Shown here piece after piece: positions 4,279 through 21,518 of a stretch of 64,000 bases of DNA. How positions within the stretch are numbered: the first letter of the stretch is position 1; every line of letters begins with the position of its first letter. A model generated the notes under the pieces. The model ran no database searches. It was not told the DNA's origin and saw nothing but the letters and a program-made list of their open reading frames with translations. Where the stretch lies: assembly GCA_000493945.1 (NCBI GenBank), contig AWNW01000001.1:51055-115054 (forward strand), read 5' to 3'. The translations under genes and the position numbers were made by a program. This DNA comes from Candidatus Hydrogenedens terephthalaticus JGI OTU-1. Lineage in GTDB: Bacteria > Hydrogenedentota > Hydrogenedentia > Hydrogenedentales > Hydrogenedentaceae.

Positions 4279-5697
4279 TTACTCTTGTGAAGGAGAATAA
4301 GGGGGTAGGGATGAGATATGGGTAGGGATTAGGAGATGTATAGCTATAACGGAACAAATTCCTATAATGCCTGAGATAATCATTACCATATCCAGACCTG
4401 TAATTTGTATTGTCGGGGCAAAAAAGAATTGTAGGGGTGTTCGTAGAAAATGAAAATAGGTATTTGATGAAATCTGAAATAAGGTTCCGTATTCTGCGAC
4501 ATAACCGGCTAAAATAGGTGCAATTCCCGCAACCAATCCGTTCAGTGAACTGTTTAATGCTAATGGTGCTGTGGCTTTACCACGAGGTGTTGTAGAAAAA
4601 ATAAGGTTTGTAAGGCATAGATTAATTCCTGCCACACAAATACCCGAAACAATATGCAGAAATAATATTAAGTACCATTGGACAATATCATTTTTTAATT
4701 CTGCAGATATGAAGCACGAAATGACAGTGGCAAAGAAAATAGGGATGCATAGATATAGCAAGGAGCGATTTCCGTAGCGAATGGAGAATTTTTTCCAGAA
4801 AGAAAAGGATACGACATTGGCAAATTGGTTCAAGACGGTTAGGCAGATAATAAGCAATAGAGAATAACCAATCCGTTTCATCAGAAAGACCGGTAAAAAG
4901 GGATTGGCAAAATTAAAGATAGCGTTCCAGATGATACAGAATGCCATTGTTCTACGAAAATAAACATTTTCTAATGATTCTTTAAATGGCTTCCAGAATG
5001 AATTGCTCTGAAGTGGAGAGTTAGTTTGTTCGTTAAAATGACTCATTAAATCGCGAATATTATGTATGGCTATTGATGAACCTAATCCTAAAATTCCGGC
5101 GAGGATGAATACCCCGGAATAACCAAAAAGCATATATTGTGAGTAATTATTTTTTATAAATTCTAAACCTAATGCCCCGACAAAACTTGCAATGGCACCT
5201 AACAATGTGGCAAAGATGAATCGTTGAGTTAATACCTGATAGAAGGTATCTGGATTGAAAAAATCGCGAAACCATGTGCTGAAGGCACAACCACCTATAT
5301 TTGCAGATGATACATAGATGATATATAAGACAAAGAAAATGGGGAGAACCTGACTTTTGATAAAGAAAAGAGGAATAAGTCCACAGAGCAATATTGCTAC
5401 TCGACTTAAAGTTAGAGAAAATAGAGCGATAAATTTTCTTTTTGGATATCTTTCAACTAAGAATGTTGCGGGTATTTGTAGAATTTGAGCCAGAGGAATT
5501 AGGGCATTTAAAAGACCAACCACAACATAACTTGCACCAAGATATAAAGCAAAAGCACTAAGAAACGCTCCAGTGCTAAGGCTTGTCATACCTTGCGCTA
5601 ATGTTGCATCAATAACAAAAAAATTTTTATTTTTATCAATATAATCGTTATTGATATTCTCTAAATCTTCTTTATTTGTTGAAACAAGAATGCTCAT
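4279..5697 (-). CDS. polytopic membrane protein, probably an MFS-type transporter
   Basis: 472 aa with about 12 predicted hydrophobic segments arranged as two halves. No catalytic motifs. Confidence 0.45.
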   Translation of the reverse strand: MSILVSTNKEDLENINNDYIDKNKNFFVIDATLAQGMTSLSTGAFLSAFALYLGASYVVVGLLNALIPLAQILQIPATFLVERYPKRKFIALFSLTLSRVAILLCGLIPLFFIKSQVLPIFFVLYIIYVSSANIGGCAFSTWFRDFFNPDTFYQVLTQRFIFATLLGAIASFVGALGLEFIKNNYSQYMLFGYSGVFILAGILGLGSSIAIHNIRDLMSHFNEQTNSPLQSNSFWKPFKESLENVYFRRTMAFCIIWNAIFNFANPFLPVFLMKRIGYSLLLIICLTVLNQFANVVSFSFWKKFSIRYGNRSLLYLCIPIFFATVISCFISAELKNDIVQWYLILFLHIVSGICVAGINLCLTNLIFSTTPRGKATAPLALNSSLNGLVAGIAPILAGYVAEYGTLFQISSNTYFHFLRTPLQFFFAPTIQITGLDMVMIISGIIGICSVIAIHLLIPTHISSLPPYSPSQE

Positions 5698-10408: not shown

Positions 10409-12898
<2,490 letters not shown>

Positions 12899-13037
12899 TT
12901 AAGTAAAGGTATTATATCAAAATTTAATAGTAAAGGGCAATAATAAACAGGATAAAATGAATGCAATATTTGAAGAATAACACAATTTTATTAATAGGAA
13001 AAATCGCTTGCAAATAGGCATCAATCAATAATTTAGG

Positions 13038-13066
13038 AGAAACAAAAATGGTGGGCGATACTGGAC
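13038..13066. repeat. 29-bp direct repeat agaaacaaaaatggtgggcgatactggac, identical to the tRNA-Val 3' end plus 11 nt of flank; the distal att-like boundary of the island
   Basis: Exact 29/29 match to 19986-20014. The sequences diverge immediately outside the repeat. Confidence 0.8.
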
Positions 13067-13457
13067 GATTTCAGAACTTTTTTTGAGCAAAATCTTGACA
13101 CTGACTGATATAAAATTACATCCCCGTTTTGCTCAAAGATTGCGGGCAAAAATTTCCTTCCCCTTGCATCCCTCCAATTTTTATCCACTCGTTAAAAGTT
13201 TTTTACATATTTTTTACACCGTTATCTTAATTCTTAAAAATTTTATACATATAACTTTTTGTATCTATGCAAAGTTGCCCGAGACTGCTCCCTGTTCTTG
13301 TCGAAGGGCAACGGAGAGCAATTTAGGAGAAGGCGGTACTCCACCCGAATTGCATATCTATTGTTGTGCGATGGGCAGAGTGCCCCTTCAATTTTTGTCT
13401 TCATTTCTTAATCCTTCCTTATCTTCCACCTTAGCATAGGACGGTAAAGGCGGTTTT

Positions 13458-13688
13458 TCATTCTTCATCCTCGTATAAATCATTTAATGTTTGCTTAAGA
13501 CTCTGAATATTTCTATATTCTGCTTCGCTTGATAATCTTGAAACATCATATTTCTGTGCAATCTTGATGTCCTTAAAAGAAAGACAATTCCCATGAACAA
13601 ATATTTCTCTTATCTGACTTCCCACAAAAAAATTTCTGCTTATCAAGATTTTGACTTTCAATAAGGAAATTGAGCAATGCTTTATCAA
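13458..13688 (-). CDS. hypothetical small protein, possibly frameshifted or a degraded gene remnant
   Basis: 76-aa ORF. A second frame directly upstream (…YFWSNLRKTKPIIDKALLNFLIESQNLDKQKFF) would fuse to it across an A7/T7 homopolymer at about 13626-13632, suggesting a roughly 105-aa protein interrupted by a frameshift. Confidence 0.25.
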   Translation of the reverse strand: MIKHCSISLLKVKILISRNFFVGSQIREIFVHGNCLSFKDIKIAQKYDVSRLSSEAEYRNIQSLKQTLNDLYEDEE

Positions 13689-13735
13689 TAATCGGTTTTG
13701 TTTTTCTTAAATTGCTCCAAAATATATGTGTTTCT

Positions 13736-14026
13736 CTAAACCTGCTTTTTCCAAATTTTCTTGGCTAAAATTTTTAAGTCTTTATAATTGCCTTTAATAA
13801 GAGATTCCTTTTTCTTTCTTGACCAGCCCTGCACTTGTTTTTCTCTATAGAATGCTTCATCAATTCTATCATATTCTTCATAATAAACAAGTTCTACAGG
13901 TAAACGGGTTTTAGTATAGTTGGCACCTTCACCATTTTGATGCTGCCATAATCTTCTTTCAAGATTAACAGTACTTCCGGTATAATAACTACCATCAGCA
14001 CATTTTAGAATGTACATGTATCCCAT
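13736..14026 (-). CDS. GIY-YIG nuclease family protein (UPF0213 / YhbQ-like)
   Basis: MGYMYILKCADGSYYTGSTVNLERRLWQHQNG carries the canonical GIY...YIG motif with the conserved Arg/Glu. 96 aa. It is the last gene of the R–Fic–M–GIY-YIG operon. Confidence 0.8.
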   Translation of the reverse strand: MGYMYILKCADGSYYTGSTVNLERRLWQHQNGEGANYTKTRLPVELVYYEEYDRIDEAFYREKQVQGWSRKKKESLIKGNYKDLKILAKKIWKKQV

Positions 14027-14050
14027 AGGTTACCTCTGTCTTATCATCGG

Positions 14051-15721
14051 TCACTTCGATACGGCCTTCGGCCTACTCAGTGACCGTTTCACTGGCCGCT
14101 GAGTAGTGGAGTGTTTTAAAACGGTTGCTGAGTAGTCCCAAAGGGACGTATCGAAGCCGGTTGCTGAGTAGTCCCAAAGGGACGTATCGGAGCCGGTTGC
14201 TGAGTAGTCCCAAAGGGACGTATCGGAGCCGGTTGCTGAGTAGTCCTGAAGGGATGTATTGGAGTTGGTTGCTGAGTAGTCCCGAAGGGATGTATTGGAG
14301 TCGGTTGCTGAGTAGTCCCGAAGGGATGTATTGGAGTCGGTTGCTGAGTAGTCCCGAAGGGATGTATTGGAGTCGGTTGCTGAGTAGTCCCGAAGGGATG
14401 TATTGGAGTCGGTTGCTGAGTAGTCCCGAAGGGACGTATCGAAGCAACCGTTTCGTATAGCAGTTATATATTCTCTAATCACATTCAAGGCATCGGGCAA
14501 GTCGTTTTTATCTATGGGTCTGCGTTGTGCTCCAAGGTCATAGCCGTCATTTTCAATCTTTACAAATAAAATAGAATCGGTTTTCTTTGCGAGCTGTTTA
14601 TCCATCAAAAGAATTGAAGTCTTAACACCCGAATATGGCTGAAAAACACCGGCAGGAAGCGATACAATCGCATAGAGATAATTTTCAACCAGCATTTTTC
14701 TGAGTTGTTTGTATGCATTAGCACTTTGGAAAATGATACCTTCAGGAACGATCACTGCGGCTCTACCGGTTGGTGTGAGGTGTTCTGCAATGTAATCCAC
14801 AAACAGCACCTCGCTGCGGTTGCTCTGCACGCTGAACTTTTTATGTGGTTTGATTCCGCCTTTCGGCGACATAAAAGGAGGATTGGCAAGAATCACATCG
14901 GCGTATTCATTCCAGCGGTCTTCGCTGGTAAGGGTATCATATTCAAATATTTGAGGCTGAACAAAGCCGTGCAGATACATATTTACAAGTGAAAGCCGTA
15001 CCATATCCGGCGAAATATCGTAGCCCTTGAAATTTTCAAAAAGTTTTTTGCGTTCCTCTACACTAAGCAAATCACCCCTGTAACCGCCATTATTGCCATT
15101 CTGTGTTTTATATTTTGGTGATGTATTTTCTTTTAGAATATGTTTGTATGCAGAAATCAAAAATCCAGCAGTACCGCAGGCAGGGTCTAAAACGGTTTCA
15201 TGTTTCTGTGGATTAACAATTTCTACCATAAAATCTATAATATGCCGTGGTGTTCTGAATTGACCCGCATCGCCTTGACTGCCGAGTACCGAAAGCAGAT
15301 ACTCAAAAGCATCGCCCAGTCGTTCGGAATGGTCGTATGTAAATTCATTGATGGTTTTGAGAAAAAGTTTTAATGTTTCGGGGTCGCGATAAGGAAGATA
15401 GGCATTTTTAAAGATATCACGGAAAAGTTGAGGCAGATTTGGATTCTGATTAAGATTTACAATGGCTTCGCTGTAAAGGGCGAGCATTTCATAACCGCCG
15501 ATGTGTGGGTCAAATATCTTGTTCCAGGCATAGCGTTCATAATTGCCGGTGAAAAAACTTGGTTTTCCGCCGAGTTCAATGGCTTCCTTGTCCATGTCAT
15601 CCATGAACTTATACACAAGCGCAATAGTAATCTGCTCCACCTGACTTTTAGGGTCAGGCACTTTGCCCACAAGTATATCGCGGGCTGTATCAATTCTTCG
15701 TTTTGTTTCGTTGTCTAACAT
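14051..15721 (-). CDS. hsdM: type I restriction-modification HsdM-like N6-adenine DNA methyltransferase with a C-terminal 12-aa tandem-repeat extension
   Basis: HsdM N-terminal domain, motif X/I (GQFRTPRHIIDFMVEIVNP...VLDPACGTAGFL) and motif IV NPPF. From about residue 432 the frame runs through nine repeats of TSLRDYSATDSN-like units encoded by 36-bp DNA repeats. Confidence 0.75.
   Translation of the reverse strand: MLDNETKRRIDTARDILVGKVPDPKSQVEQITIALVYKFMDDMDKEAIELGGKPSFFTGNYERYAWNKIFDPHIGGYEMLALYSEAIVNLNQNPNLPQLFRDIFKNAYLPYRDPETLKLFLKTINEFTYDHSERLGDAFEYLLSVLGSQGDAGQFRTPRHIIDFMVEIVNPQKHETVLDPACGTAGFLISAYKHILKENTSPKYKTQNGNNGGYRGDLLSVEERKKLFENFKGYDISPDMVRLSLVNMYLHGFVQPQIFEYDTLTSEDRWNEYADVILANPPFMSPKGGIKPHKKFSVQSNRSEVLFVDYIAEHLTPTGRAAVIVPEGIIFQSANAYKQLRKMLVENYLYAIVSLPAGVFQPYSGVKTSILLMDKQLAKKTDSILFVKIENDGYDLGAQRRPIDKNDLPDALNVIREYITAIRNGCFDTSLRDYSATDSNTSLRDYSATDSNTSLRDYSATDSNTSLRDYSATDSNTSLRDYSATNSNTSLQDYSATGSDTSLWDYSATGSDTSLWDYSATGFDTSLWDYSATVLKHSTTQRPVKRSLSRPKAVSK
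14122..14445. repeat. tandem array of nine 36-bp direct repeats (consensus cggttgctgagtagtccc[a/g]aaggga[c/t]gtat[c/t]g[g/a]ag[c/t]) plus a partial copy upstream
   Basis: The period is exactly 36 bp. There are two sub-variants (gacgtatcggagcc type and gatgtattggagtc type), and the first and last copies are identical. All six frames are open across the array. No unique spacers are present, so this is not CRISPR. Confidence 0.9.
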
Positions 15722-15781
15722 AAAGATTCCTAATCATTTACATATATTGAAAATTCGTATTTTTTCACTATATCTTTGCTT

Positions 15782-15814
15782 ATATGTCGAAAAAAAGCGT
15801 TTTTTTCGACATAT
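15782..15814. promoter_or_regulatory. perfect 33-bp palindrome atatgtcgaaaaaaa-gcg-tttttttcgacatat in the fic–hsdM intergenic gap, with a third half-site-like copy (acatgtcgaaaat) at 15822-15834
   Basis: 15-bp arms are perfectly inverted around a GCG centre. The element could form a strong hairpin (internal terminator or attenuator) or serve as an operator separating hsdM/GIY-YIG expression from hsdR–fic. Confidence 0.4.
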
Positions 15815-15835
15815 CAAAAAAACATGTCGAAAATT

Positions 15836-16954
15836 TCAAATTTTTTTATCATATTCATGGCTTTCATTAGCGGATAAATCAAAATTTTTAAAAAGTAAGA
15901 ACAACGGCTCATTAATGTAATAATTCGATTTACCGAATTTTTCCATTTTCAGTAAACCTCCTTCTACAAGTTGGTCCAAGTAATTTGCTGCTGTCTGGCG
16001 GTGCACCTTTAAGTCTTTTTGCAAAAACTCGATTTTTGTATAAGGTTGCTTAAAAAGATTATTCAATAAATCCTGAGAGTAAAATTTATAGTTGTTCCTG
16101 ATTTTTTGTTTATACTCCTGCATAAGTTCTTTTATTTTGTTTATCAGAATAATAGTGCTATTCGAGGTAACTTCAACTCCTCGTAACAGATAGAGAATCC
16201 ATGCCTCCCAGTTCTCTTTATCCCTAACCTCCTGTAAAAGTCTATAATAATCTAATTTTGTTCTAATAATATAACTGCTTAGGTAAAGTACTGGTAAGTC
16301 GAGCAAACCTTTTTGAATAAGGTAAAGAATATTGAGAATTCTTCCTGTTCTGCCATTTCCATCATAGAATGGATGAATTGATTCAAATTGAAAATGAATG
16401 ATAGCCATTTTAATTAAGGGATCAATCGGATGAAGAGAGTCATTGTTAATATAATCAATCAAATTATTCATTAATGAAATAATTTGTTCATGACCCTGAG
16501 GTGGAATATATACAGTTTTTCCAGTATCGAGGTTCTTTAATTCTGTTCCTGGGAGAGTTCTATAGCCAGCATTATTATGAATAATTGTTTCTTGAATTTT
16601 TAAAATTAAGTTGTTTGAAATAATAAATTTTTTATTGTGCATTAGTTCAAAACCTTCCCGAACAGCCTGAGCATATCGCTGGACTTCTTTAGCTGCAGGG
16701 TTTGATATAAAGTTTTCAAAAAGATTATCCTTATAAATCTCGTCATGCGTGGTAATGATATTTTCAATAGCCGAGCTGTCTTTTGCTTCAAGTAAAGGCA
16801 AGGTATAGAGCAATATGGTTTCATTAGGAATTGTTTTAGAAACACCTTTTAATTCCGCAAGATATCTATGTGCAGCAGCAAGCTGTTTAAGTACTGCTTT
16901 TGTCTCCACATCTTTTTTTGGCGGAAGTGGTGTTAAAATGTAGTTATCATTCAT
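15836..16954 (-). CDS. fic: Fic/DOC family protein (AMPylation-type Fic domain with a C-terminal winged-helix domain)
   Basis: Canonical Fic motif HPFYDGNGRTGR (HxFx[D/E]GNGRxxR). 372 aa. It starts 12 bp after the hsdR-like stop. Confidence 0.85.
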   Translation of the reverse strand: MNDNYILTPLPPKKDVETKAVLKQLAAAHRYLAELKGVSKTIPNETILLYTLPLLEAKDSSAIENIITTHDEIYKDNLFENFISNPAAKEVQRYAQAVREGFELMHNKKFIISNNLILKIQETIIHNNAGYRTLPGTELKNLDTGKTVYIPPQGHEQIISLMNNLIDYINNDSLHPIDPLIKMAIIHFQFESIHPFYDGNGRTGRILNILYLIQKGLLDLPVLYLSSYIIRTKLDYYRLLQEVRDKENWEAWILYLLRGVEVTSNSTIILINKIKELMQEYKQKIRNNYKFYSQDLLNNLFKQPYTKIEFLQKDLKVHRQTAANYLDQLVEGGLLKMEKFGKSNYYINEPLFLLFKNFDLSANESHEYDKKI

Positions 16955-16966
16955 ATTTAAAAAACC

Positions 16967-19495
16967 TCACGCTACAAACTTGTTCAATGGCACAAAATCT
17001 TTAATATACTCAGGAATTGAACTCCGCAGTTCAGGTGGTAATTTCTTGAATGCTTCACCGTAGGGTGAAACATTCAAAAGAGCAAAATTCTTATTGTCTA
17101 TGATTGCCCTGAAATCAGCATCAAGAATGTAAGCATTAAAGACTGTTTTGGCATAATTAAAATACTCTTCTTTGGGCAAATATCTGCTGTCAAATTTATC
17201 AAACTCTTCATCCAGAAGTTCATTTTTTGTCTTAAAGTAGGGGATAATCCCAAATATCTTCTCTATGATTTCCCGCATGGAAACACGGCGGTCAATCTGA
17301 ATGGAGGAACGAAGTTTTTCGAGTGTAAAATATTCCTCGGGCTTATCAAGTATATGCTTTTCAAGATAAGCCAAAAGTTCGTCCCACTTACCTTCCTCTG
17401 CCTGCTCTTTAAGAATCGGATGTTCAATGATAGTTTTTTCAAATTTTTCAAAATACATTCTATCAATCTTCATTCCGTCGGGACCGATAACAAAATGTTC
17501 GAGTTTTATTATCTGGTCTGACTGTGAACTGTCATAACTGTAAATGCCTGATGGCTCTCTAAATTCTAAAGCGGTATTTTCTCCTGAGCCTGGTTTTGGC
17601 AGTTTGAGTACTTCATCATAATTAAACTTTTCTTCAAAATACTCGCAGTTAGCAAAAAAATCAAACATTTTGAAATTTTCTTTTTGCTTCTCGCCAATCT
17701 GCACTTTTTGTTGCAGATCAGTAAGATCAGTAGCGAAGTTGTATTTTCTTGTGCCTCTACCTTTAATCTGAATAAAATCGGTAGGAGAAAAAATGGGTCG
17801 CATCAGGCAAAGATTGAGAATATCAGGACAGTCATAGCCCGTTGTCATCATGCCGACAGTTACGCAAACGCGGGTTTTGCTGGTTTTATACGAGGGGTTA
17901 AAATTACCCGTGCCTGAGAGGCGGTTATTTGTAAAATTGATGGTAAACTGTTGAGAATCAACAATTCGGGATGTAACTTGAATGGCAAAATCTGAATTGT
18001 ATTTTCCAGGAAACATTTGATGAGCCATTTCATTCAATATTTGGGTAATTTTCGCTGCATGGTTTTGCGAAACACAATAGACAATGGTTTTTCCAATCTC
18101 TCCGCTTATCGGATCCCTGTAAGCATTTTCCAAAAAGGCTTTGCAAAATTCGCGGTTAGTGCTTTCTGAAAAGAACTTTTTCTCAAAATCCTTATGAATA
18201 AAAATTTCTTCCACTTCTTCGCCTTCATCATTTTGTATGGTTACAAAGTAGCCTTTATCGGAAAGCAGTTGGGTTGTAATTTCTGTCCGTGCATCTACAA
18301 CTACAGGATTTATGAGAAATCCTTCTTTTACGCCATCGAGTAAGGAATATCTGAAAGTGGGCTCTCCATTTTCACAGCCAAAGGTTTTATAGGTATCTAA
18401 AAGCAAACGGCGTTCGAGTTGTCGCGGATCATTTTCACCAAGTTTTGATGTATCAATATGTTTTAGATAGTCTTTGGGTGTTGCGGTGAGTCCCAGTTTA
18501 TAACCTATGAAGTATTCAAAAACTGCTCTGCTGTTTCCGCCAATACTTCGATGTGCCTCATCAGAGATTACCAGATCAAAATCATCAGGTGCGAAAAGTC
18601 TTTTATATCTGTTCTTTGACAAAAAGGTTTGCACAGTTGAAACCACAATCTCTGCTTTTCGCCAGTCATCACGGTTTTCTTTGTAAATAGCTGTTTGATA
18701 GTCATTTCTTAAGTATGCGACAAAGGCTTTATATGCTTGGTCTTCAAGTTCGAGCCTATCGACTAAAAACAAAACACGCCGAGCATTTCCTGTTCGAAGG
18801 AACAACTTAATAACCGCAGCCGATACAAGTGTTTTTCCTGTACCTGTAGCCATTTCAAAAAGAAAGCGATCTTTTCCTTCTTTCACAGCATTTTGAATGG
18901 ATTGTATTGCCAATACTTGATATCTTCTTAAAAATTTTAACTTATTTTGTTCAATGAAACTTTTTCTGGTTTCTTCATTTATGTAGGAAGGGTCGTTTTT
19001 ATAATCCGGTTTTTGTGTAAGTACAATGTAATCATCATTGACTGTTTCACTGACTAATCTTTTTCTATCCGGCTTAAAAGTAGAATATCCCTTTACTGTT
19101 TCTGGCGAGGGGAAACGGCTTATAATATGAGGGTTGCCTCTTTCCAAATCCCAGAAATAATGAATATTCCCATTTGAAAGTATAATAAAGCGGCAATTTT
19201 GAGAAATAGCATACCGTCGAGCTTGTTCTTTACCAAAAAGAGGGTTTTTATCTTCTGCTTTTGCTTCTAAGACAATAAAGGGGAAGCCCTGCTCATCGAG
19301 TAATAAAAAGTCTATAAATCCGTTGCTTGTCTTCTCAAAATCCTCTCCAAACTCATTTAACTTTTCTATTGTGAGTTTGACATTATTTTCAAGAAGAATA
19401 TTAGCCTTGCCAGATTCATTATCAAAGAAACGCCATCCGGCTTCTTCAAGAAGTTTATTGATTTTTATCCTTGCTTTTGCTTCTTTCTCTGCCAT
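16967..19495 (-). CDS. hsdR: type I restriction enzyme R-subunit-like (HsdR-family) nuclease-helicase
   Basis: N-terminal HsdR_N / PD-(D/E)xK nuclease (IDFLLLDEQGFPFIVLEAK) followed by SF2 helicase motifs I (EMATGTGKT) and II (VISDEAH), and a C-terminal helicase domain. 842 aa. Confidence 0.7.
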   Translation of the reverse strand: MAEKEAKARIKINKLLEEAGWRFFDNESGKANILLENNVKLTIEKLNEFGEDFEKTSNGFIDFLLLDEQGFPFIVLEAKAEDKNPLFGKEQARRYAISQNCRFIILSNGNIHYFWDLERGNPHIISRFPSPETVKGYSTFKPDRKRLVSETVNDDYIVLTQKPDYKNDPSYINEETRKSFIEQNKLKFLRRYQVLAIQSIQNAVKEGKDRFLFEMATGTGKTLVSAAVIKLFLRTGNARRVLFLVDRLELEDQAYKAFVAYLRNDYQTAIYKENRDDWRKAEIVVSTVQTFLSKNRYKRLFAPDDFDLVISDEAHRSIGGNSRAVFEYFIGYKLGLTATPKDYLKHIDTSKLGENDPRQLERRLLLDTYKTFGCENGEPTFRYSLLDGVKEGFLINPVVVDARTEITTQLLSDKGYFVTIQNDEGEEVEEIFIHKDFEKKFFSESTNREFCKAFLENAYRDPISGEIGKTIVYCVSQNHAAKITQILNEMAHQMFPGKYNSDFAIQVTSRIVDSQQFTINFTNNRLSGTGNFNPSYKTSKTRVCVTVGMMTTGYDCPDILNLCLMRPIFSPTDFIQIKGRGTRKYNFATDLTDLQQKVQIGEKQKENFKMFDFFANCEYFEEKFNYDEVLKLPKPGSGENTALEFREPSGIYSYDSSQSDQIIKLEHFVIGPDGMKIDRMYFEKFEKTIIEHPILKEQAEEGKWDELLAYLEKHILDKPEEYFTLEKLRSSIQIDRRVSMREIIEKIFGIIPYFKTKNELLDEEFDKFDSRYLPKEEYFNYAKTVFNAYILDADFRAIIDNKNFALLNVSPYGEAFKKLPPELRSSIPEYIKDFVPLNKFVA

Positions 19496-19985
19496 AATTA
19501 AGCCTTCTCAATGTATATCATAATCATATTCCTCTTTCCCGCAATAGACAGTGGGTGTTCTTGGTTCGGTGTTAAGAAATCTAACTATATCTTTTTTTCT
19601 CAATACTTTCTTTGATACTCTACCTTTTGCACAACTTGTTCTTATACGAATCGAATGCATAACATAGACCTTTTGTAGCATATTATACGAATTTTATGTG
19701 TAATTGTTAGTAAAATTACTGATAACCACTTAACTAAATTTAGATTGCTAATTTTCATAAAATTATACAAAAACAATACTTGAAACAAACAAAACAGGGA
19801 TTAAGATTAAGAAATTACGGTTTTGAAACTATAAAGGCTTATTTGAGTTATTAGAAGGGGTGTATTAATTTCGAAAAATAAATATGGAAAAAATTAAGGA
19901 ATTATTACTAAGCAAACAAAGTAAGAAAATATTTTTCGCAAATAATTAATTTTCGTTCAAATTCAATGAAGTTTTTATAGTGAGA

Positions 19986-20014
19986 AAGAAACAAAAATGG
20001 TGGGCGATACTGGA
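19986..20014. repeat. 29-bp direct repeat (tRNA-Val 3' end plus flank); the proximal att-like boundary of the island
   Basis: Identical to 13038-13066. Confidence 0.8.
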
Positions 20015-20076
20015 CTTGAACCAGTGACCCCTTGCATGTCAAGCAAGTACTCTAACCACCTGAGCTAATCGCCCAC
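19997..20076 (-). tRNA. tRNA-Val (anticodon GAC)
   Basis: Reverse complement GTGGGCGATTAGCTCAGGTGGTTAGAGTACTTGCTTTGACATGCAAGGGGTCACTGGTTCAAGTCCAGTATCGCCCACCA. It has a 7-bp acceptor stem GGGCGAT/ATCGCCC, T-arm ACTGG-TTCAAGT-CCAGT, anticodon stem CTTGC/GCAAG, GAC in the loop, and an encoded CCA. Hand-folding gives an 8-nt anticodon loop (TTTGACAT), one T more than the canonical TTGACAT. Confidence 0.8.
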
Positions 20077-20150
20077 TCAGTATAAATGGGAATATAAATT
20101 ATATCAATCTATTAGGGTATTGTCAAATTATTGAATATTTAAGGCGATGT

Positions 20151-21518
20151 TTATTTTTTTGTTGTGTCGTTGGGTATGGCTTTGACATTTTCTATATCTA
20201 CTTTGAATGGGTAGATATTTTCAGGGAGAACTTTCATTTGTGTGCAAATGCTGTACGGATTGCCAAAGGAACCGGGAAATCGGACTTCGACATAGTAAGC
20301 ACTCCAGCCGGTTTTGGGTTGAACCAATTTTGCTTTGGCTTTTCCCTTTCCTTTTAAGGGTGTGCTTTCCCATTTGGAGTTTCTAAAATCGCGGTTGTTG
20401 GAATCGGCTTTCCAAAGGTAAGCAGTTCCTTCCGGATTATCCCATTTTACGGTTATGGTATTTCTTTTCGATATTTCCCAGGACACTGAAGGGAACGATT
20501 TTTTCTCTTTTGCGAATAGGAAAAATTCGGCTAATGTAGCAATGCCTGTGGGTGATGCATCATGCCCTGTATTGGCTTGATAACACAAATATTTTGGAGC
20601 AGGGAAGTCCGGGAAGTATAGATTGGCAGAGTCTACAGTCCAATAGGGGTCGTTAGTGCCAAGAAGAATTAACTTGGGCAATGTAAGTGAATTTCTGTAA
20701 GTATAAGGGTCAACGATGCTTAATAATTGTTCTCCTTTCGGTAAATGCATTCTCTGAGGAATTTTAAGACGGGTGTAATCTTCTATTTCGCTACTGAAAG
20801 TGCCGTAGCATTCTAATTGATGGAGCATTTGTTGTTTCATGTTCAGCACATCAATAACAGCAGGGGCAATGGCTACAACTCTGGGGTCTCCTGTTGCTGC
20901 GGTTAGCCATGTTGTCCAACCTCTTTTAGAGCCACCTGTAAGAACGAATCGTTTGATTTCATGGTTGTCTGTATCCTTCTGCACCAACTGTATAGTATCC
21001 ATAGCACGGACGGCACTTTTTACCATAGGTAGTAATAATGGCCATTCATCTCCTTCTCCGTTGAGATATTTATCGTAGGTGTATGCGATAATTTCATCTT
21101 CATTTCTTCCATCAAATAAGGGTTGATTGGGAACCTGAGACAGAACTGCGATAACAGAATTTGTCTTTTTCGCAACTGTGACGGCAACTTTAAATTCCAG
21201 AGAATTAATATTGGGTTCTTTTTGTCGGTTTGAGCCTCCACTAATAACAAGCATGGCTATGTCAGAATTCTTTATTTCAGGTGGACAGAGTAGAACAAGC
21301 CAATGAGTCCAGACTATATTCTGCCATGTCTGTGATGTCAGCCGAACAATTTTTGCTTTGCAACCCTCTACATCTTTTGTATCTACAATTTCATAGGAGT
21401 AGGTTGGGTCGGGTTTGGTTACATAACTTTTTAAGTCGGCATGAGTAAATGATGGGATGAATAAAAGGTTTAAAAACAAGGGGAAGAAAAACACAATGGC
21501 TAATTTGTTCTTTTTCAT
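20151..21518 (-). CDS. secreted PhoPQ-activated-pathogenicity-related (PqaA-like) predicted alpha/beta hydrolase
   Basis: Signal peptide MKKNKLAIVFFFPLFLNLLFIPSFTHA. The TGGSKRGWTTWLTAA motif resembles the PqaA family nucleophile region. Confidence 0.45.
   Translation of the reverse strand: MKKNKLAIVFFFPLFLNLLFIPSFTHADLKSYVTKPDPTYSYEIVDTKDVEGCKAKIVRLTSQTWQNIVWTHWLVLLCPPEIKNSDIAMLVISGGSNRQKEPNINSLEFKVAVTVAKKTNSVIAVLSQVPNQPLFDGRNEDEIIAYTYDKYLNGEGDEWPLLLPMVKSAVRAMDTIQLVQKDTDNHEIKRFVLTGGSKRGWTTWLTAATGDPRVVAIAPAVIDVLNMKQQMLHQLECYGTFSSEIEDYTRLKIPQRMHLPKGEQLLSIVDPYTYRNSLTLPKLILLGTNDPYWTVDSANLYFPDFPAPKYLCYQANTGHDASPTGIATLAEFFLFAKEKKSFPSVSWEISKRNTITVKWDNPEGTAYLWKADSNNRDFRNSKWESTPLKGKGKAKAKLVQPKTGWSAYYVEVRFPGSFGNPYSICTQMKVLPENIYPFKVDIENVKAIPNDTTKK

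Follow-up and report, generated by a model that had tools for sequence, protein, structure and literature searches.

A probably decayed type I restriction island at the tRNA-Val gene of Candidatus Hydrogenedens terephthalaticus, with the specificity half replaced by a GIY-YIG/hairpin unit

In type I restriction-modification systems, the methylase subunit (M, HsdM) cannot recognize DNA without the specificity subunit (S, HsdS), the C-terminal linker region of M is where M contacts S, and the restriction subunit (R, HsdR) is active only in complex with the M2S core. Here we describe a 6.9 kb island at the tRNA-Val(GAC) gene of Candidatus Hydrogenedens terephthalaticus JGI OTU-1 that most likely is a decayed system of this type, in which the S half has been replaced by a small GIY-YIG nuclease gene and its hairpin repeats. 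The island lies within a stretch of 64,000 nucleotides (contig AWNW01000001.1 of assembly GCA_000493945.1, positions 51,055 to 115,054 of the forward strand), designated the window, to which coordinates refer unless a related locus is named.

Several described systems resemble parts of this island. Integrase-less islands flanked by tRNA repeats are remnants of integrative elements that resemble cis-mobilizable elements, and REP/RAYT pairs consist of an IS200/IS605-derived transposase with repetitive extragenic palindromes. An engineered EcoKI fusion of methylase and specificity subunit (M·S) is functional and requires additional free M for an active enzyme (Roberts et al. 2012, PMC3510504). 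Stand-alone abortive infection by the Fic AMPylase SoFic has been validated (PMC12249575), and its gene is among the commonest defence genes (PMC10924106). A recent study (Chenal et al. 2025, PMC11893778) describes Ssn proteins of ~94 aa as GIY-YIG enzymes with a single domain, which cleave single-stranded DNA (ssDNA) beside flanking hairpin repeats and modulate Neisseria transformation. These repeats, designated NTS/SRM, are oriented hairpins of 20-50 nt that share a conserved unpaired sequence and lie on one side of the gene or on both, and gene and repeats together resemble an insertion sequence.

The island is bounded by two copies of a 29-bp direct repeat, between which four co-directional open reading frames (ORFs) on the minus strand are separated by 12, 114 and 24 nt:

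16967-19495, minus strand: HsdR-like subunit, 842 aa, with an N-terminal PD-(D/E)xK nuclease and a superfamily 2 (SF2) motor, full length (Pfam, PADLOC)
15836-16954, minus strand: SoFic-type Fic AMPylase gene, 372 aa (Pfam, PADLOC, motifs)
14051-15721, minus strand: truncated methylase ORF, 556 aa; residues 1 to ~424 belong to HsdM of the M·S family, followed by read-through of a repeat array
13736-14026, minus strand: small single-domain GIY-YIG nuclease gene, Ssn-like, 96 aa, or 93 aa from the likely start at 14017

An initial reading of the letters alone, referred to as the original prediction, had proposed HsdR-like, Fic, HsdM-like and GIY-YIG genes in this arrangement; the Pfam and PADLOC profile searches uphold all four assignments, and the shared orientation and the three gaps are as it gave them. 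The HsdR-like protein has Pfam matches to ResIII (8e-39), HSDR_N (2e-5) and Helicase_C and a PADLOC match to REase_I (1e-56), and its translation has the D..EAK, GTGKT and DEAH motifs. It has the length of its relatives, 842 aa, with 85% nucleotide identity to the gene in a related cassette (L006). Its best NCBIfam match, to the EcoAI-family model NF046051, reaches 220.9 bits against a cut-off of 550, consistent with a related protein rather than a member of that equivalog. In the SoFic protein, Fic_N, Fic and SoFic-like_C all exceed the Pfam cut-offs, the PADLOC SoFic profile matches (1e-118) over 350 of its 361 positions, and the translation has both the catalytic motif HPFYDGNGRTGR, of the HxFx(D/E)GNGRxxR type, and an SxxxEN inhibitory motif. 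The three Pfam domains, the full-length PADLOC match and the catalytic HPFYDGNGRTGR are thus common to this protein and described SoFic, although the score against the NCBIfam equivalog NF046030 is 374.8 bits, below the cut-off of 550. A small downstream antitoxin-like ORF is reported for E. coli SoFic (PMC12249575), whereas none is evident in the 114-nt spacer that follows the gene here. The methylase matches N6_Mtase (2e-51, Pfam) and MTase_I (8e-97, PADLOC) and, with LDPACGTAGF and NPPF intact, is of the gamma-class N6-adenine type. In the GIY-YIG protein the Pfam domain (9e-19) occupies residues 1-73. There is no Pfam match to Methylase_S in the 556-aa ORF, and tblastn searches with two S halves from relatives were negative across the window; the island therefore has no hsdS, as originally reported.

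How this gene set came to be without S is apparent from its relatives. The 118 best HsdM matches, excluding the window's own protein and a 544-aa variant from the same population, are 82-92% identical to the methylase, but only over residues 1 to ~430. In 110 of the 118, which are 623-968 aa in length, mostly ~810-880 aa, N6_Mtase is followed by PF01420 (Methylase_S); these originate from Bacteroidales, Spirochaetota, Brevinematales, Ignavibacteria, Acidobacteriota and other groups. Both fused relatives tested have two Methylase_S stretches, corresponding to two target recognition domains (TRDs), and one fused relative matches both MTase_I and Specificity_I in PADLOC. Because PF01420 is present in so many relatives, with two TRDs, the specificity subunit in this HsdM family is normally fused to the C-terminus of the methylase. 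The fusion engineered in EcoKI is thus natural and predominant here. The absence of hsdS, put forward as a possible design feature, is therefore better explained by loss of S from the window's copy.

The family has a compact and conserved cassette structure. In a Bacteroidales metagenome-assembled genome, Brevinematales bacterium NS, Thermotomaculum hydrothermale and a fourth metagenomic lineage, the order is R (839-842 aa), SoFic (361-369 aa) and M·S (823-846 aa), with spacers of 12-18 nt and ~110-120 nt; L006 has R and M·S followed by a 239-aa gene, designated X, and no Fic; and in two relatives (L113 and L114) R, M (468-492 aa) and S are separate genes. The R-M-S order of these split members is also that described for EcoKI. 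R before M is therefore the norm in this family, and the R-Fic-M order, originally considered reversed and non-canonical, is conserved with equal spacing. The cassettes share with EcoKI/EcoAI-like type I systems an HsdR with nuclease and SF2 motor, a gamma N6-adenine methylase with NPPF and, in the relatives, two HsdS-type TRDs. They differ from ordinary type I systems in that SoFic is usually wedged between R and M·S, and the window's copy differs further in having no S of any form. SoFic, described and usually counted as a stand-alone gene, is in the window and four relatives a fixed member of R-SoFic-M·S and so a partner of a restriction system. Over the R-SoFic-M part, from 19497-19538 (~2-43 nt upstream of hsdR) to 14450-14484, five relatives from different phyla (L006, L008, L107, L108 and L109) have 72-85% nucleotide identity to the window (14450-19538). 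At the M|S boundary this conservation over distant phyla gives way abruptly to variable sequence, the pattern to be expected from recombinational exchange of S modules over a constant scaffold.

In the window, the homology ends at this same boundary. The methylase is 92% identical to a fused relative (P0003) over residues 1-429 and has no similarity thereafter. In an alignment of ten sequences, the window follows the family through ...YITAIRNG, after which the linker (ADEKPC..ALLVKKEKLAENGEYNLTGDRYR) and both TRDs are missing, and the similarity to M breaks off at residue ~424-426. The C-terminal ~45-70 residues that are absent are conserved in relatives, including split M, so that the real methylase sequence in the window is shorter even than a split M. 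On the far side of the GIY-YIG gene, the homology resumes:

13361-13701, minus strand: frameshifted 3′-remnant of X (last ~77 codons, 13473-13701) with a conserved 3′-flank (13361-13457)

The 13473-13701 region encodes residues 162-238 of X in two frames (tblastn with X from L006, E=1e-19), X having been lost through codon 161, and the flank of ~100 nt matches positions 15378-15632 of L107 (Brevinematales) by blastn, extending past the X stop codon. X homologues have weak HEPN matches, and an RNDAAH motif (Rx4H-type) is visible by eye. Since homology ends at the M|S boundary and a frameshifted X remnant remains beyond the insert, the arrangement is one of replacement rather than design: ~1.75 kb, comprising the S half and 161 codons of X, was exchanged for ~750 nt in which the GIY-YIG gene is accompanied by a repeat array and a structured spacer. 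Accidental read-through of that array accounts for the TSLRDYSATDSN repeats with which the methylase ORF ends. The decayed type I island with a replaced hsdS, one of two readings considered at the outset, is the reading that the missing fused S and the unit in its place favour. The second, a new S-independent module, finds no support, as the GIY-YIG gene and repeat tract are a separate element that took the place of the S half and of a portion of the following gene. Nor, with the GIY-YIG gene a later replacement insert, are the four genes one ancestral operon.

The position of the island is that of an integrative element, at the 3′-end of the only tRNA gene that ARAGORN identifies in the window:

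13038-13066, unstranded: distal 29-bp att-like repeat, on the gyrB side; perfect match to 19987-20015, beyond which lies the native tRNA-gyrB spacer of relatives
19987-20015, unstranded: tRNA-proximal copy of the 29-bp repeat, with an 18-nt overlap with the tRNA 3′-end
19998-20074, minus strand: intact tRNA-Val(GAC), the integration target (ARAGORN, Rfam; syntenic in six relatives)

The perfect repeat (AGAAACAAAAATGGTGGGCGATACTGGAC) consists of the last 18 nt of tRNA-Val, including the encoded CCA, and 11 nt of downstream flank. It had been recognized originally, and is borne out with the second copy one base to the right of the earlier placing. A concern that the repeat might be a common sequence is not substantiated within the window, where there is no third copy with up to three mismatches allowed, and no occurrence was obtained in 100 dinucleotide-preserving shuffles of the window. 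At E<=1, Rfam identifies within 12800-20200 only the tRNA (66.7 bits) and two sub-threshold chance matches, and so assigns the hairpin repeats described below to no known RNA family. The island is flanked by gyrB (10409-12889) and gyrA on one side and by a PhoPQ-related gene on the other; the gyrB ORF has a TTG start and encodes 826 aa, in agreement with public gene calls. A scan with GyrB, taking one genome per species, provided six relatives (L012-L017, labelled Candidatus Hydrogenedens, Hydrogenedentota or uncultured) with 83-94% GyrB identity. In all six the gene order is Prismane, Rrf2, RsgA, PhoPQ-related, tRNA-Val(GAC), gyrB and gyrA, the end of tRNA-Val is ~155 nt from gyrB, and a single copy of the 29-bp core runs straight, in the alignment, into the sequence found beyond the distal repeat of the window. 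Because these six relatives have an empty site with a single core, the island is a genuine insertion at tRNA-Val, adjoining gyrB, as was proposed. Together, the repeat and the empty sites are what integrase-mediated insertion at the 3′-end of a tRNA classically leaves.

Exact-protein look-ups, made with the 544-aa methylase variant and flanking genes as the exact 556-aa methylase is not on record in public assemblies, located the locus in a JGI metagenome contig (L001), in Logan assemblies and in a single-cell assembly (GCA_000402275.1), and all have the island. The gyrB-side junction, by which occupied as well as empty sites of the same species would be recognized, gave no match when looked for in JGI metagenome contigs, although the JGI contig L001 has it; this result is uninformative on absence. 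The original statement that the island has no integrase holds: Pfam detects no such domain in its ORFs, small ORFs included; tblastn with XerD and a scan for the recombinase C-terminal motif were negative over the window; and ten candidate-sized ORFs elsewhere in the window have Pfam matches to housekeeping genes only. No excisionase, mobilization gene or remnant thereof was detected in the island, and the intact cassettes L008, L107, L108 and L109 have no convincing flanking direct repeats. In having direct repeats of a tRNA 3′-end around defence cargo, at a site that is empty in relatives, the island resembles integrase-less tRNA-flanked islands, from which it differs in being very small and in that its cargo cassette occurs elsewhere without such repeats.

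The unit that occupies the place of S contains, besides the GIY-YIG gene, two elements with the same hairpin motif in opposite orientations:

14122-14448, plus strand: 36-nt array of the hairpin motif, antisense; the last unit, 14412-14448, is a complete motif (Tandem Repeats Finder (TRF), motif search, fold)
14050-14084, minus strand: complete hairpin motif, sense, just upstream of the GIY-YIG gene; holds the stop codon of the truncated methylase (motif search, fold)

TRF delimits the array as 8.8 copies of 36 nt (14122-14439) inside the 3′-end of the methylase ORF, which confirms the prediction that this frame ends in tandem repeats. The motifs at 14050-14084 and 14412-14448 fold as predicted, with an outer 8-bp stem and an inner hairpin at 14050-14084, and have z-scores of about -3.7 to -3.9. 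In L001 the array is one unit shorter (17074-17361), resulting in the 544-aa ORF, and in three other assemblies, the single-cell genome and two Logan assemblies, contigs end inside the array; the array is unstable in copy number.

Thousands of relatives of the GIY-YIG protein exist, and the top 120, with 68-89% identity, originate from many phyla and often from very short contigs. The nearest solved structures are UPF0213 proteins (1zg2 and 1ywl, E=4e-15). Through a family alignment, 80 metagenome loci (L027-L106) were gathered; all were reached from one query, whose closest relatives they are, and have short flanks. With the motif defined as TGAG and GAR at most 60 nt apart, enclosed by a 5-nt stem and its complement, a hairpin is present in 71 of the 80 loci no more than 400 nt from the gene, with a density of 3.99 per kb near the gene and 0.09 per kb farther away, and only two other weak matches are present elsewhere in the window. 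The short form of the motif is stem-TGAGSNNNNTCGAA-stem and the long form, found also in L020 (4850-4975), L033-L035 and L087, is stem-CTGAGTA-(inner hairpin)-GTAYCGAAG-stem, in which the CTGAGTA and GTAYCGAAG bases of the internal loop are invariant. Compensatory changes are present in three of the four pairs of the inner hairpin and 89.7% of its cells are paired; pairing of the outer stem is imposed by the search, that of the inner hairpin is not. A hammerhead-like reading of CTGAGTAG...GAA was dropped, as core position 8 is U rather than G.

That the unit is separate from the cassette is evident also from its distribution. It is absent from all five intact cassettes, and in L020, where the GIY-YIG protein is 86% identical, it truncates an unrelated PRiA4_ORF3 gene. 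Comparison of L020 (4853-5430) with the window (14452-13362) reveals a common left end of the unit (ACGGTTGCTTCGATACG...CTACTCAGCAACCGTTTT, then GGTCACTGAGTAGG-hairpin-CGTATCGAAGTGACCGAT) and, downstream, the X tail with its flank, which suggests that part of the former flank travelled along with the unit. Other GIY-YIG relatives have variable tandem repeats of the same motif before or after the gene. In a Kapabacteria-like lineage (L021-L026; ~4560-5000 and 5290-5600), a member of the GIY-YIG family is at the edge of a variable defence region with a PLD-helicase, an Eco57I-type methylase and an AAA_15 ATPase, and strains differ there by tandem copies, 19, 23 and 149 nt in length, in which the hairpin motif is repeated.

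As in the Ssn family (PMC11893778), a single-domain GIY-YIG protein, here of 93-96 aa, is flanked by oriented hairpin repeats. The repeats themselves differ: the SRM consensus HGTCWYN(0-2)YYVSBRHN(0-5)WNVSBRGN(0-2)RNCYNB, applied as a regular expression, has no match in the window or the 80 loci, the window's repeat being CTGAGTA-(hairpin)-GTAYCGAAG within a stem, or the short TGAGSNNNNTCGAA form. With the consensus unmatched, filing these repeats as SRM was rejected, and the pair is best regarded as resembling Ssn/NTS by analogy and not as an Ssn member. The likeness to REP/RAYT is that in both a small nuclease gene is flanked by hairpin repeats that it presumably recognizes and that are locally amplified; the differences are that the fold is GIY-YIG, not HUH, and that the window's repeats are clustered at the gene, not dispersed.

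Many of the GIY-YIG relatives are near restriction genes. By tblastn with M, R and Fic of the window and the S halves of relatives, 28 of the 80 loci have type I or Fic genes within 2.5 kb, and the usual order is hsdM, GIY-YIG, hsdS. When the nearest long ORFs are examined by Pfam, N6_Mtase is upstream in 14 of 67 loci and Methylase_S downstream in 19 of 59. After clustering of the GIY-YIG genes at 95% nucleotide identity into 61 non-redundant lineages, 16 have a co-oriented HsdS-like ORF that starts within 1.3 kb downstream. The GIY-YIG start codon (ATG) overlaps the preceding stop codon in four loci, and in the three of these whose long upstream ORF ends at that point (L038, L048 and L071) the preceding gene encodes an N6-methylase. 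Judged from these comparisons, the unit's placement in the window, at the boundary of conserved M and variable S, mirrors a recurrent placement. The link to hsdS is to be read with the caveat that these loci may share descent with restriction cassettes. A specific association of this GIY-YIG subfamily and its covarying hairpins with the hsdM|hsdS junction across many phyla is suggested only tentatively. In the literature searched, which most subscription journals fall outside, we found no description of a GIY-YIG gene together with hsdS/hsdM or of Fic inside type I operons, and the hsdS association turned up neither in the consulted sections of the Ssn study (PMC11893778) nor in a full-text search. 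The original linking of the GIY-YIG gene with a type I system thus stands as regards its recurrent position just upstream of hsdS, but not as regards membership of a new four-gene module.

From the direct repeat, the empty sites of relatives, the architecture of the family and the breakpoints, all of which are shown here, we infer the following order of events. A small integrative element would have entered the 3′-end of tRNA-Val(GAC), upstream of gyrB, by site-specific recombination, duplicating the 29-bp core and bringing as cargo a compact, horizontally spread cassette of hsdR, SoFic (in most members), M·S and HEPN-like X (in some members). The integrase would since have been lost, or would have acted in trans. 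Later and separately, a unit consisting of the 93-aa GIY-YIG gene and its own structured hairpin repeats would have replaced ~1.75 kb, from residue ~424-426 of M·S to codon 161 of X, and its repeats would here have been amplified into the 36-nt array. The truncated methylase, without the DNA-recognition module and the C-terminal linker, would presumably be unable to methylate specifically, and HsdR would not be recruited. As M without S cannot recognize DNA, HsdR requires M2S and the linker is gone, the system is most likely dead; its restriction function has probably been lost. SoFic may nevertheless still be active as a stand-alone abortive-infection toxin, as its catalytic and inhibitory motifs are intact. 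With hsdR, SoFic and the core of M still intact, the sequences point to a recent decay. The island is a broken ordinary system of a known kind, not a new S-independent one.

Some observations do weigh against this account. The full length of hsdR, SoFic and the M core, with their catalytic motifs intact, could reflect either recent decay or ongoing selection for some function. The array accounts for almost all differences between the window and L001, the population copies being otherwise identical. The searches for hsdS and integrase covered the 64-kb window, and either gene may lie elsewhere in the genome. No integrase-bearing copy of the island was found, and its integrase-mediated origin is argued from the att-like repeat and the empty sites. 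In many loci the GIY-YIG gene has the appearance of an integrated operon member, for which the term selfish insert may be too simple. The strongest of the alternatives is that the GIY-YIG/hairpin unit is a recurrent functional accessory of type I systems at hsdM|hsdS, perhaps restricting incoming ssDNA or promoting exchange of hsdS, with the window representing an exchange that ended in the loss of S. We regard this as possible but doubtful, and as compatible with the decayed-island reading. It accords with the HsdS-like ORFs downstream in 16 of 61 lineages, with Methylase_S next downstream (19 of 59) and N6_Mtase next upstream (14 of 67), with the start/stop overlaps in four loci, three of them involving an N6-methylase, and with the location of the window's unit exactly where conserved M ends and variable S begins. 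That Ssn nucleases cut ssDNA beside hairpin repeats and modulate transformation (PMC11893778) would also be in keeping with such a role. Many relatives are, however, in unrelated contexts, the repeats do not match the published Ssn consensus, and the 80 loci, being the closest relatives of one query, may share ancestry with restriction cassettes.

The remaining alternatives are much less probable. Restriction-modification could still be alive if specificity were supplied in trans by an orphan HsdS or a further M·S protein from another part of the genome. R and the catalytic core of M are intact, the search for S was of 64 kb, and free M might be useful beside a fused M·S, given that the EcoKI fusion requires free M (PMC3510504). 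We nevertheless consider such rescue improbable, as the truncated M is without the ~45-70-residue C-terminal linker that is retained even in split M; S-like sequence was not found in the window. In type I enzymes, this linker region is where M contacts S. A functional, previously undescribed S-independent defence or abortive-infection module, in which two nucleases, a methylase and a Fic toxin act together, would be in keeping with four intact, tightly spaced ORFs on one strand, with the catalytic motifs retained in R, Fic and M, and with the frequent occurrence of GIY-YIG relatives inside type I operons. It is very improbable in view of the close relatives, all of which have S fused to M or directly after it, the abrupt end of homology at M|S with a frameshifted X remnant past the insert, and a methylase tail that is a copy-number-polymorphic repeat. 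The exact arrangement is, moreover, found in only one species population. Least likely of all is that the 29-bp repeat arose by chance or local duplication and is not an att site, the cassette having arrived by homologous recombination. The failure to find an integrase and the lack of comparable repeats around intact cassettes in other genomes would fit this, but the two copies match perfectly, have no third counterpart in the window and would not be expected by chance; the repeat starts within the tRNA and stops 11 nt beyond it; and the empty sites of six relatives hold one copy precisely at the junction.

Type I-like loci that seemingly are without hsdS should be checked for membership of M·S fusion families and for truncation before they are called new. 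The island is also a clean example of an integrase-less, att-flanked defence islet beside gyrB. The one point that is possibly new is the recurrent link of the GIY-YIG/hairpin pair, which in roughly one in four of the sampled lineages lies just upstream of hsdS. At this junction the GIY-YIG protein might be a homing-like selfish element, or a device that breaks or recombines DNA at the M/S boundary and so drives specificity turnover. Should the targeting be real, Ssn-type nucleases would gain a biological context in the evolution of defence systems.

Three additional features are present within the island:

13067-13360, unstranded: island-specific end with no recognizable gene; absent from cassette relatives, its small ORFs without Pfam match, no phage match
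19508-19986, unstranded: island-specific end between hsdR and the tRNA-side repeat; relatives' homology begins only at 19497-19538; no Pfam match, no phage match
15775-15854, unstranded: conserved AT-rich element with palindromes and direct repeats, between Fic and M (I1 and I8, both inverted repeats; 15-bp hairpin)

A blastn search of phage genomes with both island-specific ends (~290 nt and ~480 nt) gave no match. The Fic-M spacer of the window contains a perfect 15-bp hairpin (ATATGTCGAAAAAAA/TTTTTTTCGACATAT; fold z=-4.4), and in L108 (9883-9962) and L008 (9913-9985) 40-nt direct repeats occupy the same place. This AT-rich element may act on the expression of M·S as an operator or attenuator.

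Some of the intact cassettes have further sequences downstream of M·S. In L107 (Brevinematales bacterium NS, 12495-15536), a 754-aa AAA_13 ATPase that matches the PADLOC candidate PDC-S06 (1e-182) is encoded between M·S and the X homologue, which itself has a weak match to HEPN_RiboL-PSP. In L109, M·S is followed (12487-13188) by ~52-nt tandem repeats (ATAGGAGCGACCATATGGTAACAA...) unrelated in sequence to the array of the window. Comparison of the whole island with plasmids identified only a distant system of R, a 677-aa methylase and a TrlF ATPase on E. coli IncF plasmids. In one of these, pL37-4 (L112; NZ_CP034592.1, 8987-16535), the system is next to finO, has 66% nucleotide identity to the island in parts, and consists of a DEAD/DEAH helicase-type R, the N-6 methylase and a TrlF-family AAA-like ATPase; it is present on more than 50 conjugative plasmids of E. 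coli and other enterobacteria.

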